Assembly (NCBI GenBank): GCA_005888115.1
Contig: VBKO01000045.1
Location: forward strand, 1 to 50,798
Reading direction: 5' to 3'
Length of the DNA: 50,798 bases
Source of the DNA: Deltaproteobacteria bacterium
Lineage (GTDB): Bacteria > Myxococcota > Myxococcia > Myxococcales > 40CM-4-68-19
The translations under genes and the position numbers were made by a program. The notes beneath the pieces were generated by a model. That model was not told where the DNA came from and did no database searches. It saw only the letters and a program-made list of their open reading frames with translations. This document shows, in pieces, positions 7,119 through 27,079 of the stretch (position 1 is the first letter of the stretch; each line of letters begins with the position of its first letter).

Positions 7119-7397
7119 ATGGCGCGGATGGTGAAGTGCGTCAAGCTCCAGCGCGAGCTGCCCGGCCTGGAGTTCAAACCGTTCCCCAACGACCTGGGGC
7201 AGCGCATCTACGAGAGCGTCTCCCAGGAGGCCTGGAAGATGTGGCTGGAGCATTTCAAGATGATCATGAACGAGTACCGGCTCGCCGGCGGAAGCGAGCA
7301 GGCGAACCAGATCCTCTTCGACCAGGCGGAGAAGTACTTCTTCGGGGAAGGCGCGGCGCTCCCGCCCGACTACAAGCCGCCGCAGGCCAAGGGGTAG
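7119..7397 (+). CDS. yggX: Oxidative damage protection / Fe(II) trafficking protein
   Basis: [17 protein letters not shown]...[16 protein letters not shown]...NEYRL; AGGAGG SD. Confidence 0.92.
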
Positions 7398-7398
7398 G

Positions 7399-8793
7399 GT
7401 GCGGAACCGCGGCGACATCCTCGTCGTGTCCTGCTACGAGCTCGGGCGGCAGCCGGTGGCGGCGGCGACCGCATTGGCCGAGCTGCGACGGGCGGGATTC
7501 GCGCCGGCCGCACTGGACGTGTCCGTGGAAGCCGTCGACGACGAAGTCCTCAGGCGCGCCAGCCTGGTCGCCATCTCGGTGCCGATGCACACCGCGCTGC
7601 GGCTCGGAGTACGCGTGGCGCAGCGCGCGCGAGAGGACGCCCACGTCTGCTTCTTCGGGGTGTACGCGCAGCTCAACGCGGAGCACCTGCTGGATCGGCA
7701 CGCGGACTCGGTCATCGGCGCCGAGGCCGACGTGCCGCTGCGCCTGCTCGCCGAGGCGCTGGAGCGCGACGATACCGCGGCGGTGCCCGGCGTGCGCACC
7801 GCGGGCGCAGCGCCGCTGCCTGCGCGCGAGAAGCTCGCTCCAGCGGTGCCCAGCCGCGCTGGGCTCCCCGTGCTCGACCGGTACGCGCGGCTGGAGATCG
7901 AAGCCGAAACGCGGCTCGTCGCTTCCGTCGAGGCGTCGCGCGGCTGCAAGCATTCGTGCCGCCATTGCCCGATCGTGCCGGTGTACCGCGGGCATTTCGT
8001 CGCGGTGCCGCGCGACACGGTATTGGGGGACATCGAGCAGCAGATCGAAGCGGGGGCGCGCCACGTCACCTTCGGAGACCCGGATTTCCTCAACGGGCCT
8101 ACGCATGCGCTGCGCGTGGTGCGCGAGCTGCACGCCCGCTGGCCGGACGCCACGTTCGACGCGACGATCAAGATTGAGCACCTCCTGCAGCACCGCGAAA
8201 TCCTGGCGGAGCTGGCCGCTTGCGGTTGCCTGTTCATCACCAGCGCCGTCGAGTCGCTCAACGACTCGGTGCTCCTGGCGCTCCGGAAGGGCCACACGGC
8301 GGCCGACGTCCCGGTCGCCTTGCGGCTGGTCCGGGCGGCGGGGATCGATCTGCGGCCCACGCTGTTGCCCTACACGCCCTGGACCGCGCTGGGCGACGTG
8401 GCCGAGTTGTTCGAGTTCGCGGTGCAGCACGACCTCGTCGAACAGATCGACCCGGTCCAGTACACGCTCCGGCTGCTCATTCCGCCGGGGTCGGCGATCC
8501 TGGACGGCGACGAGCCGCGTCCGTGGCTGCGGACGTTCGAGCCCGATCAGTTCGGCTGGAGCTGGACCCACCCGGACCCGCGCGTCGACGAGCTGTGGCG
8601 CGCGTCGGCCGCGCTGGCCAAGGCGCAGGTGGAAGCCGGGGCGGATCCGATGGACACCTTCCGCAAGCTGCGCGCACTCGCCGATCCGCAGCCGCACGAG
8701 GCTCCCAGGCGCGCTTCCCGCAAGGTGCCGCGGCTCACCGAGCCGTGGTTCTGTTGAACGGAGCCCACCACCGGCCAGGTCGGCCGGACCTAG
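7399..8793 (+). CDS. CUAEP/CCAEP-tail radical SAM selenoprotein (UGA 8755-8757 read as Sec; tail WFC-U-TEPTTGQVGRT)
   Basis: SCYELGRQP N-terminus, ISVPMHTA, CKHSCRHC, TFGDPDFLN. The frame continues past TGA as TEP... to TAG 8791-8793, and a SECIS-like hairpin follows the UGA. Confidence 0.85.
8755..8787 (+). promoter_or_regulatory. Bacterial SECIS element
   Basis: TGA, a 13-nt spacer, then CCGGCC-AGGTC-GGCCGG (8771-8787). The loop resembles the AGGUCU apical loop of the E. coli fdhF SECIS. Confidence 0.75.
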
Positions 8794-20288: not shown

Positions 20289-21665
<1,377 letters not shown>

Positions 21666-21680: not shown

Positions 21681-23249
21681 TCAAGCCGGCCTCGGCTGGA
21701 CGGGCAGCACGATCGAGAATGTCGATCCTCTTCCGAGCTCGCTCTCCACCGCGGTGTCTCCACCGTGGGCGACGACGATCCGGCGCACGTTGGGAAGGCC
21801 CATGCCCACGTGAGCGCCGGTGCGCTTGGTGGACTTGAAGGCGTCGAAGATGCGCGGCAGTCGCTCCTGCGCGATCCCCGGGCCGCGGTCGGTCACCTTG
21901 AGCGTCGCCACGGTGTCCCGCTGCGACACCTCGATCGAGACCTGCACGCCGGGGGGCGAGGCCTCGATGGCGTTGGAGAGCAGGTTCAGCGCGGCGCGCT
22001 CGAGCAGGTAGCGGTCTCCGTTGACCCAAGGCGCCTCGGCAGCGGGCATGACGGTGATGTGCACGCCAGCCTTCTCTGCGTGCGGGACGGCGGTGCGCCC
22101 GATGCTGTGGGCGAACGCATTCAGGTCGAGCGGGAGGAACTGGTCCGGCGATACCTCGCGCGAGAGGTCGGCGAAGTCGGCCACGAACTTCTTCAAGGTG
22201 GCGGTCTCCGCGCGCAGGTTGTCGCGGATGAGCGGGAGGTACGCGGGGTCGTTCGCCTCGGCGAGCGCGGCCGTGGACTGCAGGATGGCGAGCCGGTGCC
22301 CCAGATCGTGCGAGATGCCGGTCGCGATGCGCCCTGCGGTGCGCCACCGTTCCTCGGTCTCCAACGTATCGAGGACGCGCCGGGACTGCGCGGCGCCGAG
22401 GGCCAGCGTGACGAACAGCGCGGCCACCGCAACCGCGGAGAGACCGATCAGCGCGTTGCGCATCGGCGCCAATGCTTCGCGCTTGGGCTCCTCGACCACC
22501 ACCGTCCAGCGCGGGTCCGACAGCCGCGCCCACCCGGCCAGGACGTCTTCGCCGATGGCCCCGTGCAGCTGGGGGGGCGCGGGCTCTCCACGCGCTACCC
22601 TGCTCGCCAGCGGCGACTCGGCGATTGGCTCGCCGGTCAGCACGTTGGCGCGGAGCGCGGGGGCGCCCGCGGCGAGGAGGCGGCCCTCGGCGTCGAAGGC
22701 GAGCGCGAACCCGCTCTCGCCGATGCGGATGCGCTGCACCTGGCGCTGCAGCTCGAGCAGGTCGAGCGTGGCGCACACGGCGGTTCCCGCCGTCGCTCCG
22801 GCGGGGACGCAGACGTCCATCGCCGGGGTCAGGTCCTCGCGGAAGTACAGGGCCGAGGCGACCTCGCGGCCGGCCAGCGCCGCGACGACGTCCGCGGGCG
22901 CCAGGCGCTGAGGGAGCCGGTCCGCCGGGGTGCGCGGAGTGAGCAGCGTCACGTGCCCCAGGCTGGGGGCGTCGAGCGCTACCTGCGCGAGCCGCCGCTC
23001 AGCCTCCGTGATGCCCGTGACCAGCCCGGCGAGGGCGCGCAGCATCTCGCGCTGGTGCGAGAGATAAGCGCCGATGCGCGAGGCCGCCTGCTCCGCGATG
23101 ACCGCGAGCGCCGCCTGGGAGCTCCGCTCGGCGCTGCGCCGCAGGAGGAAGATGGCGGAGAGACCGACCAGAGCGATGAGAATCCCCGAGCTCGCGACCA
23201 GCACGAGGAGCTTCCGCGCCATCTCCTGTCGGCTCGATCGGTCGTTCAC
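21681..23249 (-). CDS. Membrane sensor histidine kinase with large extracytoplasmic (Cache-like) domain
   Basis: Two TM helices, H-box ISHDLGH, NLLSNA, DRGPGI, GMGL. The GTG start overlaps the upstream TGA (GTGA). Confidence 0.9.
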   Translation of the reverse strand: MNDRSSRQEMARKLLVLVASSGILIALVGLSAIFLLRRSAERSSQAALAVIAEQAASRIGAYLSHQREMLRALAGLVTGITEAERRLAQVALDAPSLGHVTLLTPRTPADRLPQRLAPADVVAALAGREVASALYFREDLTPAMDVCVPAGATAGTAVCATLDLLELQRQVQRIRIGESGFALAFDAEGRLLAAGAPALRANVLTGEPIAESPLASRVARGEPAPPQLHGAIGEDVLAGWARLSDPRWTVVVEEPKREALAPMRNALIGLSAVAVAALFVTLALGAAQSRRVLDTLETEERWRTAGRIATGISHDLGHRLAILQSTAALAEANDPAYLPLIRDNLRAETATLKKFVADFADLSREVSPDQFLPLDLNAFAHSIGRTAVPHAEKAGVHITVMPAAEAPWVNGDRYLLERAALNLLSNAIEASPPGVQVSIEVSQRDTVATLKVTDRGPGIAQERLPRIFDAFKSTKRTGAHVGMGLPNVRRIVVAHGGDTAVESELGRGSTFSIVLPVQPRPA

Positions 23250-24420
23250 TCCGAGATCTCCCAATCCGGCAAAGTCTCCAGATAGCCGTACGGGCCGACC
23301 TGGGGATTCTTGACGCGGCTGTCCACGACGGCCAGGCGCTCGGGGGTGCAGATGAAGGCGACCGGCGGGTCTTCGCGCAACTCTTGCAGGGCGCGTGCCC
23401 AGTCACCGCCTCTCAGCGCGGCGTCGACCTTGGGATTGCTGTAGCCGATTTGATTATAGGGCGAATCGGACGCCCAGACGAGCGCCGCCGAGCTGGCCGG
23501 CCAGACGAGGGGCCGGAGTAACAACAGATCGAAATCCTGACTCTTGGCAAGTCGGAAAGCATCAGCGACAGAAACCAAACGGACGTCGCCCCCGTGCCGT
23601 CCCAGGGCTCGCGCGACGGCCAAGGCGGTGCGCTCCAAGGCGAGATCCTGCCGGAAGACGGTGATCTCCAATGCTCTGGCGGGCAGGACGGGGTTTTTAT
23701 CGCGGCCGACGGAAAAGGCAGGACATTCATTTCCGAAGACGAGCCTGCTGATGCTATCCACCGGAAGCGCCGCGGCGATCGCACTGCGGGTTGCGCGGCT
23801 GAGCCGGTTGAGGCCCATGGCGACGGCGATCGCGTTCGCGCCGTGCGCACGAATGATGCGCAACCGGCTGATGCCTTGGAAGAACTCCAGCTGCTTCGGA
23901 TCGGTCACGATCAAGAGGTCTGCGTCTCCCGCCAGCGTGCGCGCGAATGGATCCCGGGGCGTGGGAAACCCGAGCAAGAGGACCTCATCGATTTTTCCAA
24001 GACCCGGGACCACGCGGCGGAGCAAGAGCCGTTCGGGGTCGAACGAGACTCGATCAAGAGGCCGCGTGTCTGCTCGCGGACCTCGAGCCCGGCCTCTCGG
24101 AGGGACTGCCGGACGTTTTCTGGCGTGATGGCAGATCCGTCGCTGAACTTCGCCCCATTGCGAATCTCCAACAGCACGCGCGACGGGCTCGAAAATTGGA
24201 ACCGGCTGGCGAGTCCGGAGATCGCCGAGCCGTCAGATGCAGTGCGCAGTAGCGGCTCGAATACCCATTCCTTCGCATACCCGCTGGCGCTGGGTTGGGC
24301 GCCCGGCGTGAGCGCCGTGAGCGGACCGACCAGCGCGATGCGCAGCCGGAATTCTCCCTTCGTCTGCGAGGGCCTGCAGGCGAGAGCTGCGGTGAGGAAC
24401 GCGAGCAGGAGGCGGCGCAC
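23246..24420 (-). CDS. ABC-type (family 5, OppA/DppA-like) substrate-binding lipoprotein, frameshifted near 24040-24050
   Basis: Lipobox ALAC, VFEPLLR, GLASRF, KFSDGSAITPENV (ORF 23911..24420). C-terminal half with AGDADL and GYSNPKVDAAL is in ORF 23246..24025. Confidence 0.75.
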
Positions 24421-24444
24421 GAGGCCCCCAAGCCTCGTGGCGCC
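24414..24444 (-). promoter_or_regulatory. Stem-loop downstream of the precursor gene, overlapping the SBP start codon
   Basis: Minus strand GGCG(C)CACGAGGC-TTGGGG-GCCTCGTG-CGCC; no U-tract. Confidence 0.55.
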
Positions 24445-24455
24445 ATCGCATTACG

Positions 24456-24536
24456 TCAAGAAATGTTGGGCACGAGAATCATGATGCAGGGCGCTGCCTT
24501 GCGGGTGCTCTTCCGGGCGCTGCGCTTGATCTTCAT
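24456..24536 (-). CDS. Putative RiPP precursor peptide MKIKRSARKSTRKAAPCIMILVPNIS (26 aa)
   Basis: Read manually (below the ORF-track cutoff). GGAG SD 6 nt before the ATG, 20 nt after the rSAM stop. Basic leader and a Cys-containing hydrophobic core. Confidence 0.78.
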   Translation of the reverse strand: MKIKRSARKSTRKAAPCIMILVPNIS

Positions 24537-24556
24537 GGTTCGCTCCATTTGCGGCC

Positions 24557-25839
24557 CTATGCCGCGGCGGTTGCGGGGGACGACACTTCGGTGACGGGGA
24601 ATTCCGCGAGGTAACGGCGCACGATCGTCTCGCGGAAGCTCAGCTCGTACTTCTCCTTCTTGCAGGCGACTTCATCCATGCGGCCGGTCTTGAGGTACTT
24701 GCCGCCCAGGCATCCGCCGACACAGACAGGGAGGTATGGGCAGTCTCCGCACTTCTCCCAGGGCCGCAGGGCCACGAGCGGCGCGACCTTCTCCGGGCCC
24801 GTTCCCGCGACGTGCGCCACTTCCAACCCGGGGATGCCCGCCACTACCGGGCACTTGTAGACGCGGCCCTCGGGGTCGATGGTGTAGTTGTTCTTCCAGT
24901 GCAGCTCGCATTGTTGAGCTGCACCAGGACCTGCGACTCCTGTTTGTCGCCGCAGCCCGTGCAGCTCGCCTTCGCCTTCTGCGTGTCGACGATGGGCTTG
25001 AAGTTCACGCCCGCGAGCTTTCCGCGCAGGCCCGCCGCCTCGATCCGGTCGAGCAGCCGTTCGAAGCTCTCCCTTTGCTCGGGCAGGAAGTTCCCGTTGA
25101 CGAGGATCCGGACGAGGTCGGCGCAGGCGACCACGTTGTCGAAGATCTGGTCGAAGCTCCCGCGGCCGTTCCGGTAGACGCGCATCTGGTCGTGCGTCTC
25201 GCGATCGCCGTCGAGCGTCACCATGAACAGGCCGTCGCCGAAGCGGCGCATCTCGAGGGCGAAGTCGGGGGTGAGCCCGATCCCATTGGTGGTGCACGAC
25301 CAGCGGAACCGGCCGCCGCGCGCCTCCATCGAGGCGCTCAGCACCTCCGCGGTGCGAAGCATGAAGTCCTTGCGGGTGAGCGGCTCGCCTCCGAAGTAGT
25401 GTACGTGCAGGACGCGCAGCGCGCGCTCGTCCAGCGTGCGCAGGATCCACTCGAGGGTGGAGTCCTCCGTGCGCTCGTGCATCTTGGTGAAGGCCGGGTG
25501 GTCCTTCTGGAAGCAGTAGGTGCAAGCGAGGTTGCAGGCGAGCGTGGGCATCAGGGTGACCTGCATGGTCCCCGGTTCGCCCTCGGCGGCCCGGTCGAGG
25601 AATGCGCGCAGATTCGCGTCATCCTCCGCGCGCGAGCGCACCAGGAAGCCTTCCTCGAGCAGCACCTGCTGCGTCTCGCGCTCGGCGGCGTCCGCCGGGC
25701 GGCGCCCGCGCGTCCAGCGCTCCAGCGCGTCGGACGTGGCGTCGTCGATGCCGACGTAATGATCGGCGAGGACGCTGTAGAGCACGTGCTCGCCGGGTCG
25801 GATGTCGCGGTAAGAGACGACGAACCGTGACAGCTGCAT
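24557..25839 (-). CDS. Radical SAM/SPASM peptide maturase, frameshifted near 24910-24915
   Basis: RRE-like N-terminus ending LEEGFLV, CNLACTYC, YFGGEP, TTNG, TLDG. The SPASM part (CELHW..YKC..CGDCPYLPVCVGGC..C) is in a second frame. Confidence 0.85.
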
Positions 25840-25854
25840 GGACGACGCAGCTAC

Positions 25855-25869
25855 GCAACGCGAGTGCCA
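25855..25869 (-). promoter_or_regulatory. Sigma-54 (-24/-12) promoter of the rSAM operon
   Basis: Minus strand TGGCAC-TCGCG-TTGC matches TGGCAC-N5-TTGC exactly. Confidence 0.8.
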
Positions 25870-25945
25870 GGGTGCGCCCGCCGTGCGGCGTGCGAGCGCG
25901 GATCGGCGCAAATCGGGAGCCTGCGCAGGAATTCCAATTCGAATA

Positions 25946-25979
25946 GCCAGGAATCGAGCCCCAGGCCAGGATTCGAGCC
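25946..25979. repeat. Tandem 15-bp direct repeat, candidate enhancer (UAS)
   Basis: GCCAGGAATCGAGCC (25946-25960) and GCCAGGATTCGAGCC (25965-25979); one mismatch, 19-bp period. Confidence 0.65.
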
Positions 25980-26126
25980 GCGCAGGGATGGTCGATCGGG
26001 CCCGGAGTCTGGCCGATGGCCGCTTCCATGCCCGCTTCCGCGCACGATAAAAATGTTTTAAAACCAATTACTTATCATTGGTGGCCGAGATCCGGGCCAG
26101 TGGGGCCAATCGGCTGGCCTGGGCGA

Positions 26127-26142
26127 TGGCGCGCGACTTGCT
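26127..26142 (+). promoter_or_regulatory. Divergent sigma-54 promoter
   Basis: TGGCGC-GCGAC-TTGCT just upstream of the gene at 26155. Confidence 0.65.
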
Positions 26143-26154
26143 CAAGGGAGCCGC

Positions 26155-26385
26155 GTGACCGATCAAAAGCTCATCGGCGTGTGCCACCTCCGATCCGAAG
26201 GCCGCAGGATCCCCGTCCTGCTCTTCCGCAACGGCCCCACCTCGGTCGCGGCGCGTTGCCTCATCCATCCCGGTGACACGCCCATCCTCGACGGGCCCTC
26301 GCCGGAAGCGGTGCTCGCGCTCCTGGCTGGCGTGATCGACGATCTGCTGCTCGCACGCGGGGCGATCACCGTTCCGCCGATTTAG
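26155..26385 (+). CDS. Hypothetical protein (76 aa)
   Basis: Globular-looking ORF with coding-like codon use (RRIPVLLFRN..AARCLI..DTPILDGP). Confidence 0.7.
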   Translation: MTDQKLIGVCHLRSEGRRIPVLLFRNGPTSVAARCLIHPGDTPILDGPSPEAVLALLAGVIDDLLLARGAITVPPI

Positions 26386-26398
26386 TCCGCGCCGCGCA

Positions 26399-27079
26399 TC
26401 AAGCGCGTCGCCGGGGCCGGAGCCGCCGCGCCGCAGCCACTCCGATGATCGCGGCGGCGGCAAAGCTGCATCCGACCAAGGCCCAGACGAGTGCTCCGGG
26501 GACTTCGTGCCGCTCGAGCGCCGCCGCGCTGGGCACCAGCGATCCCGCCCACACGTACAGCGCAATTCCCGGAGCCATGCCGAACAGCGTTCCCAGGACC
26601 AACGCGCGCGGCTTCAGCCCGGTGAGACCCAGCACGGCGTTGCTGGGAGTGAAGGGAAGCAGGGGAGAGATGCGGATCAGGGCCACCGTGGCCATTCCGC
26701 CGTCCTCGGCGAGCTGCGCGAGCGCGCGGGCTCGGGGCCGGCCGAGCAGCCAGCGCGCGAACGCGCCGCGGCCCAGCGCTCGCGCGATCCCGAACGAGGT
26801 GGCCGCGCTCGCCACGGCGGCAGCGAGCGAGATGGGGATTCCCCACAGACCGAAGAGCCAGCCCGATGCGAGGATCAGCGGAATGATTGGTACGAGCAGC
26901 AGCGTGGCGAGGTAGATGCCCGCCCCCCACAGAAGCGCGCCGGCGAGACCCGCGCCCTGCAGCCTCGCGGCAGCCACCGCGATCCAGTGCAGCAGCGGCA
27001 GCTCGGCTCCGATGATCCACAGCGCGAACAGCACCGCGACCACGGCGGCGAGCCGCAGCGCGGTACGCGAGGGAGGCAT
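26399..27079 (-). CDS. DedA/VTT (TVP38/TMEM64) family membrane protein
   Basis: SGWLFG, FGIARALGR, LIRISPLLPF, GTLFGMAPG. Confidence 0.88.
   Translation of the reverse strand: MPPSRTALRLAAVVAVLFALWIIGAELPLLHWIAVAAARLQGAGLAGALLWGAGIYLATLLLVPIIPLILASGWLFGLWGIPISLAAAVASAATSFGIARALGRGAFARWLLGRPRARALAQLAEDGGMATVALIRISPLLPFTPSNAVLGLTGLKPRALVLGTLFGMAPGIALYVWAGSLVPSAAALERHEVPGALVWALVGCSFAAAAIIGVAAARRLRPRRRA

Follow-up and report, generated by a model that had tools for sequence, protein, structure and literature searches.

A single-cysteine peptide gene beside a geopeptide-maturase-like radical SAM/SPASM enzyme in a conserved sensor gene cluster of soil Myxococcota

The closest described counterpart of the locus reported here is the geopeptide system, a pairing defined in silico by the models TIGR04229 and TIGR04280, which it resembles in placing a short Cys-containing peptide beside such an enzyme. 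Our full-text literature search returned no paper using the geopeptide name, TIGR04280, or TIGR04229, but only 'gageopeptide' lipopeptides, and the searchable portion of the 2013 TIGRFAMs paper names SPASM, not geopeptide (PMC3531188). Within the portions of the literature retrieved, no paper was found describing a comparable combination of radical SAM/SPASM enzyme, precursor, and histidine kinase in Myxococc- taxa. Among enzymes of solved structure, CteB from Clostridium thermocellum (PDB 5WGG/5WHY, 'Thioether Bond Formation in the Biosynthesis of Sactipeptides') appears to share the three-part RRE/radical SAM/SPASM build, differing in a sequence identity of only 18-19% and in its host, a Firmicute. 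The models for the PapB/freyrasin ranthipeptide maturase (NF047865), CefB (NF038107), and TIGR04463 gave 114-170 bits with the enzyme studied here, against cut-offs of 340-600. The substrates of PapB, CefB, and TIGR04463 carry repeated Cys motifs, whereas the peptide reported here has one Cys. CteB, a member of the SCIFF/ranthipeptide class, acts on a peptide with several cysteines and is not known to be attached to a sensor circuit.

The locus lies in a stretch of DNA of 50,798 nucleotides (hereafter, the window, meaning the whole stretch analyzed), which is contig C314 of a 571-contig metagenome-assembled genome (MAG); all genomes with which it was compared are likewise MAGs of uncultured bacteria. 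The maturase gene occupies the minus strand in two parts, an N-terminal part (24911-25839) with a putative RRE-like domain and a CxxxCxxC radical SAM core (TIGR04280, 178 bits; PF04055, 69.5 bits against a threshold of 29.5) and a C-terminal SPASM part (24557-24910) in a shifted frame (TIGR04085, 40.2 bits against a cut-off of 27). Intact homologues measure 445-450 aa, and both the CxxxCxxC cysteines (C102, C106, and C109) and those of the SPASM region (C335, C354, C388, C391, C397, C401, and C417) are invariant in 23 homologues. An AlphaFold model of the maturase (mean pLDDT 73) placed three strands and three helices in residues 7-84 (beta3-alpha3), suggesting that the N-terminus forms an RRE-like domain. 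CteB was the best fold match (Foldseek E ~4e-14, TM 0.57-0.64 at 18-19% identity, full-length alignments of 451-476 columns) and also the best profile match (hmmsearch E 2.3e-17). We classify the maturase as a predicted radical SAM/SPASM protein.

Our model searches identified TIGR04280 as the best NCBIfam model for the maturase, aligned over positions 1-423 of 428 and followed by the Cys-peptide maturase models TIGR04463, CefB, PapB, and SCIFF. The five intact homologues searched all scored 218.8-262.1 bits with TIGR04280 against a cut-off of 400, the two enzyme pieces of the window gave 178.2 and 66.4 bits, and none of 401 Myxococcota genomes exceeded the 400-bit cut-off. On the peptide side, no NCBIfam model matched any of 25 peptides at E<=10. 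TIGR04229 (22 positions, cut-off 30 bits) had no match at the peptide locus, and its six-frame search of the window's genome yielded only matches of 13.6 and 11 bits on other contigs. The preliminary description had pointed to a resemblance to the geopeptide pair; its enzyme half stands insofar as TIGR04280 is the best model, whereas membership in the geopeptide system was rejected with the enzyme at 219-262 versus 400 bits and the peptide without a TIGR04229 match. Because the enzyme is sub-threshold to TIGR04280 and the peptide matches no NCBIfam model, we place the pair as an unnamed sister family of the geopeptide system, not as geopeptide itself. The same genome (G000) contains a second, distant radical SAM/SPASM gene on another contig (C346:5612-6556, plus strand; 43.7 bits to TIGR04280), adjoined by a TonB-dependent receptor gene (C346:7684-8961, minus strand), which may represent a different peptide system.

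The precursor peptide gene (24456-24536, minus strand) comprises 26 codons and a TGA stop, with the ATG at 24536-24534 and the stop at 24458-24456, and its 26-aa product MKIKRSARKSTRKAAPCIMILVPNIS divides into a leader (residues 1-16), Cys17, and the tail IMILVPNIS. As the preliminary description had noted, the ORF is well placed for translation: the maturase stop codon (TAG, 24559-24557) is followed by a 20-nt spacer, in which a Shine-Dalgarno GGAG (24543-24546, minus strand) lies 6 nt upstream of the ATG. An alternative in-frame ATG at 24548 (MERT...), four codons upstream, was ruled out as the start, since a stop codon separates the two ATGs in the congener L006. Since 90 ORFs of at least 20 aa were counted in the 9 kb of GC-rich DNA around the locus, a 26-codon ORF is uninformative by itself, and conservation decides the matter.

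Close maturase homologues (60-86% identity over the first 301 residues) occur in most other genomes of the same family (28 of 33), and none was detected at E<=1e-20 in 27 genomes from other families of the order. The 29 same-family enzyme loci consist of 24 with more than 100 nt past the enzyme stop, one cut by the contig end inside the ORF, and four lacking DNA there. Collecting small ORFs downstream of homologues, a check that the preliminary description had proposed, returned a matching ORF in all 24 same-family loci with DNA at that position, with an enzyme-to-peptide spacing of 13-32 nt in 22 and 102-108 nt in two, and with GGAG or GGGG preceding each complete peptide copy. Alignment of 25 distinct peptides (A2) revealed R12 and C17 as invariant and M1, K2, I3, R5, S6, and K9 as nearly so, giving the same-family leader motif MKIKRSxRKSxR, while the tail after the Cys is hypervariable and 5-10 residues long, with longer extensions in two peptides. 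The bipartite architecture proposed for the precursor, a basic leader followed by a Cys-led C-terminal core, is thus borne out by the alignment, the leader being the conserved part and the core the variable one. Across 23 within-group pairs, which are not independent of one another, leader codons showed 76 synonymous versus 49 non-synonymous differences, and tail codons showed 45 versus 108; the leader appears to be under purifying selection. A contig from soil run X4, about 94% identical to the window and spanning 24401-24655, represents a co-occurring strain with another peptide allele (A15V, I18T, M19A, I20V, and I25V); four of these five substitutions lie in the tail, and none of the eight nucleotide changes in the ORF is synonymous. 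Because of this conservation, the pattern of codon changes, and the soil-strain allele, we regard the ORF as a genuine gene with a constrained leader and a diversifying core.

The peptide had been described as unannotated, and an exact look-up of 10 peptides in a collection of 15 billion proteins agreed with this: seven, including both forms from the window, were absent, and the other three were unnamed or recorded as 'hypothetical protein'. The peptide gene is mostly uncalled by gene callers, and the family has no model in NCBIfam or Pfam, which is why RiPP families of such size stay invisible in MAG annotation. In public records, all of which are MAGs labelled Myxococcales or Deltaproteobacteria, mostly from soil, the enzymes themselves go under no name other than 'radical SAM protein' or 'uncharacterized protein'. 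Among 20 listed sequencing runs with this DNA, none was an RNA data set.

Two genes of the window contain frame breaks. Relative to five congeners, the maturase lacks 73 nt at 24910|24911, and relative to two congeners (L062 and L038), the binding-protein gene downstream lacks 97 nt at 24047|24048. No other large break interrupts the 13 kb of synteny, and the one 864-nt block enclosed by the two gaps (24047-24910) contains the peptide gene. In the public contigs of four soil runs, none of the pieces listed bridges either joint in the form seen in the window. One contig of run X2, differing at two of 368 nt, carries other letters precisely within the 24910|24911 joint, and a contig of run X3 has 24 unmatched letters before 24911; at the other joint, an X2 contig is identical over 24047-24210 and continues with 76 letters whose start matches the segment missing relative to the congeners. 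Because near-identical independent contigs carry extra letters at the joints, we read the gaps as a probable assembly artefact, with joints flanking a strain-variable block rather than gene decay, and the enzyme gene is probably intact in nature. The suggestion that the enzyme would have to be repaired before co-expression is not supported here, the 73-nt break being absent from near-identical public contigs. If the gaps were real, the window copy would be inactive. Apparent pseudogenes of this kind are most likely assembly joints, which calls for caution in inferring gene decay from MAGs.

Beyond the same-family genomes, a TIGR04280 search of the 401 Myxococcota genomes returned 28 with a match at E<=1e-40, distributed over the window's family (12/16), two other families of the order (10/67 and 3/172), and another family of the class (2/5). 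Downstream of enzymes of about 50% identity in other Myxococcota families, a small ORF of the same build follows at 10 of 13 loci with DNA and was not found at the remaining three (L099, L059, and L060). The leaders in these families are, for example, of the M-x-[ILV]-K-[IT]-S-x-R-x-S-[TV]-R type, and the peptides end in Pro-Cys plus 5-7 residues; at L102 and L103, in another Myxococcota family, the peptide gene is tandemly duplicated, with copies differing by 1-3 residues. The more distant loci L058-L060 are devoid of the binding protein and kinase, and two of the three have no recognizable peptide. At L058 (a Polyangiaceae MAG, ~7360-7510), a longer peptide with an unrelated leader and the ending ...PLPCSNIIF, that is, Pro-Cys plus five residues, follows a 52%-identical enzyme and adjoins a different kinase/activator pair. 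L060 belongs to a Terriglobia-labelled MAG (G419), the sole high-scoring genome among 201 in a sample of that phylum; its enzyme is 57% identical, with no peptide or sensor genes after it. Mis-binning of the contig or a transfer may account for this copy, which was left out of the evidence. The same 201-genome sample contained six genomes with more divergent enzymes (30% identity in L117 and 33-36% in the other five). A sigma-54 activator of 50% identity adjoins the enzyme in five of these six Acidobacteriota-phylum loci, and an ORF with a basic leader and a single Cys directly follows the enzyme in three of the four with DNA there, a fifth ending at the enzyme. Compared with these Acidobacteriota relatives, the Myxococcota branch has a leader motif and a tail of its own.

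Upstream of the maturase, the motif TGGCAC-N5-TTGC (25855-25869, minus strand) ends 15 nt before the ATG and is the sole exact match in the window. TGGCA[CT]-N5-TTGC recurs at -29 to -32 from the enzyme ATG in all 29 family loci, and we interpret it as a conserved predicted sigma-54 promoter with -24 GG and -12 GC elements. Because this predicted promoter lies so near the ATG, the mRNA leader of the maturase would be only a few nucleotides long, transcription being predicted to begin about 4 nt ahead of the ATG. The enzyme and peptide genes would be transcribed together from it, the enzyme almost leaderless and lacking a Shine-Dalgarno sequence and the peptide with a strong one. Both direct and inverted repeats are conserved upstream of the promoter. 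Two direct repeats, GGCTCGAWTCCTGGCY (25945-25979, minus strand), are conserved in an alignment of eight upstream regions and are candidate activator sites, and further upstream, additional repeats of the GGCCAG...TGGCC type with an AT-rich stretch (25999-26119, minus strand), conserved in the same eight regions, form a candidate enhancer or bending region. The twin repeats, GGCTCGAATCCTGGCC and GGCTCGATTCCTGGCT, also look like the T-arm end of a tRNA gene. A search of 23200-26400 gave no promoter of the sigma-70 type; the single terminator-like site in that interval (23579-23595, minus strand) does not exceed what shuffled sequences yield (1 versus a mean of 1.8), and Rfam gave no match in 23000-27000.

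Downstream of the peptide gene lie an orphan family-5 solute-binding lipoprotein gene (23246-24420, minus strand; split by the 97-nt gap) and, with its start overlapping the end of that gene, a dCache histidine kinase gene (21681-23264, minus strand; HATPase_c 88 bits, dCache_1 38 bits, below the cut-off of 45). Convergent with the kinase is an NtrC-type sigma-54 activator with receiver, AAA+, and HTH domains (20289-21665, plus strand; Sigma54_activat 234.5 bits, Response_reg 99.5 bits). PF00496 (SBP_bac_5) scored 46.5 bits against a threshold of 32.4 with the intact binding-protein homologue L062 and 18.4 and 16.4 bits with the two window pieces, and a signal peptide ending in Cys was present in 18 of 19 homologues. 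Among related loci with DNA there, 24 of 27 have the binding-protein gene next in order; the kinase is kept in 21 and the activator in 16. The window contains neither an ABC permease nor a TonB receptor, and the conserved block lacks genes for a leader peptidase or an exporter.

Of the proteins of the locus, the binding protein evolves fastest (mean distance 0.50 versus 0.25-0.36 for the others), and across 17 loci, its variation tracked that of the peptide tail (partial Mantel r 0.37, p 0.0002). With better-trimmed proteins from 11 loci, the tail tracked the catalytic part of the kinase as well as it tracked the binding protein, suggesting that the signal is not specific against other locus proteins and mostly reflects phylogeny. 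A complex prediction for the L061 binding protein (residues 16-423) with the 43-aa peptide of the same genome returned a score of 0.02, which gives no answer and counts neither way.

Between the peptide and binding-protein genes, a stem-loop (24414-24444, minus strand; MFE -24.9 kcal/mol) covers the GAGG and GTG start of the latter and has no following T-run; it may serve translation attenuation or transcript stabilization. Comparable hairpins occurred in 13-14 of 16 loci in single-sequence folds, with at least four stem-sequence types between lineages, and RNAalifold on a MAFFT alignment of the 16 spacers gave no common pairs, the stems being out of register. A TTGAC element is retained about 35 nt before the binding-protein start in all 16 aligned loci (A3), at 24455-24459 (minus strand) in the window, where it overlaps the peptide stop; no sigma-70 -10 partner was found for it, and it may act as the half-site of a regulator or as an internal promoter.

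The peptide is very probably the precursor substrate of the adjacent radical SAM enzyme. The precursor directly follows a radical SAM/SPASM enzyme whose nearest characterized relatives make Cys thioethers, in keeping with the thioether crosslink put forward earlier. As in sacti- and ranthipeptide precursors, a potential donor, Cys17, lies in the core (25/25 peptides), and the gene sits beside the maturase. A thioether ring on the Cys is the likeliest modification because CteB, the closest solved relative, forms thioethers, and a link from Cys to carbon is favored because an invariant Cys adjoins an enzyme of the Cys-thioether class; for the thioether itself, we consider the case evenly balanced. 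The basic leader would probably be bound by the RRE-like N-terminal domain, and the maturase would then act on Cys17, joining its sulfur to a carbon within the next five residues in a small thioether ring (-2 Da). Asn24, which had been named as one candidate acceptor, is unsupported as a general one because Asn occurs in some tails only; it is not conserved, and the shortest tails, of five residues, impose no Asn/Asp requirement. Within the window's family, aliphatic residues occupy tail positions +3 and +4, which elsewhere are Gly-, Ala-, or Ser-rich; the shortest cores consist of the Cys plus five residues. Because there is no conserved acceptor side chain, a backbone C-alpha (sactionine-type) or side-chain-tolerant link would fit better than an Asn/Asp-specific one.

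In our overall account, the ORF specifies a precursor that is made on the ribosome and then modified (a RiPP precursor) within a sensing operon; taking this account as a whole and weighting it to its first two layers, we favor it, though by no wide measure. The operon would run on into the orphan peptide-type binding lipoprotein and the dCache kinase, with the neighboring sigma-54 activator as the kinase's partner. Because the operon holds a peptide-type binding lipoprotein, a kinase, and a partner activator, we propose that the peptide, presumably after removal of its leader, probably reaches the periplasm or the exterior of the cell, that the lipoprotein would then bind it and the kinase sense it, and that the activator could feed back on the sigma-54 promoter. 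The hypervariable tail would supply lineage-specific signals. The earlier idea of an autoinducer-like peptide sits well with the conserved binding protein, kinase, and sigma-54 context, and a self-sensed peptide signal is a reasonable possibility, to which we assign somewhat less than an even chance.

In one alternative, the peptide matures into an antimicrobial bacteriocin resembling a sactipeptide or ranthipeptide, and the two-component system merely autoregulates or senses it without communication, for which nisin-type regulation offers the precedent of a bacteriocin sensed by a two-component system. The enzyme class and its closest relatives, which are thioether RiPP maturases, agree with this, as does the hypervariable core, a feature also typical of bacteriocins; however, the conserved block contains no immunity, ABC-exporter, or peptidase genes, some cores extend only 5-6 residues past the Cys, and a dedicated orphan binding lipoprotein and kinase are conserved alongside, leaving this reading unlikely. 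It is improbable that the peptide instead gives rise to a PQQ-, mycofactocin-, or methanobactin-like small cofactor or metal binder cut from the C-terminus and recovered or sensed by a NikA-like protein. Such a product would suit a SPASM-class enzyme and a core placed at the very C-terminal end, three of the tails terminate in VY, and the weak PDB matches of the binding protein are NikA nickel/metallophore binders (E ~1e-3), but a single conserved cofactor cannot be reconciled with a hypervariable tail, the model for the mycofactocin maturase matched the window enzyme at only E 0.036, no more tailoring enzymes are conserved, and the TonB receptor and permease are absent from the contig. Still less probable is a translated regulatory uORF that would act with the hairpin to tune only the expression of the binding-protein and kinase genes after it and would not be an enzyme substrate: a hairpin over the start of the next gene does follow the ORF in most loci, whereas the invariant Cys and conserved leader beside a maturase of the Cys-peptide class with a putative RRE, the tandem duplicate copies, and the persistence of the pairing in a changed context (L058) all speak against it. 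A chance ORF in GC-rich DNA counts as refuted, for although ORFs of at least 20 aa frequently arise by chance in the window DNA, the position, Shine-Dalgarno sequence, leader, and Cys are kept in dozens of genomes, and the leader shows more synonymous than non-synonymous changes.

The modified-peptide account can be carried one step further. Soil Myxococcota, with related modules in Acidobacteriota, may possess a quorum-sensing-like RiPP circuit in which a single-Cys peptide cyclized by a radical SAM enzyme is sensed through an orphan binding lipoprotein and dCache kinase, a sigma-54 activator then turns on the producing operon, and the tail defines lineage-specific 'pherotypes', a picture that we put forward tentatively and hold to be doubtful in its entirety. 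Peptide-based cell-to-cell signalling is regarded as a Gram-positive trait. If the picture were true, these Gram-negative soil bacteria would have a peptide pheromone system built on a new peptide family and would provide a testable counter-example that combines a modified mini-peptide, a periplasmic receptor, and sigma-54 feedback. The minimal core of one Cys and six residues in all is moreover a simple substrate for probing this radical SAM/SPASM branch.

Comparison with known signalling systems concerns ways of working only, with no homology claimed. LuxP-LuxQ is a binding-protein-dependent sensor kinase system, and the pairing of an orphan periplasmic binding protein with a kinase is where the present locus resembles it. 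The staphylococcal AIP is a cyclic peptide pheromone, and the likeness to it is that a small, lineage-variable, Cys-based cyclic peptide would be the signal here. The Agr system employs AgrB and a thiolactone, with no radical SAM enzyme, and the hosts here are Gram-negative. Set against the geopeptide models, the window peptide is encoded downstream of its enzyme, its one Cys precedes a C-terminal tail, and no TonB receptor is found on the contig. Compared with these systems, the locus presents an undescribed peptide family paired with a geopeptide-maturase-like enzyme in a conserved sensor circuit.
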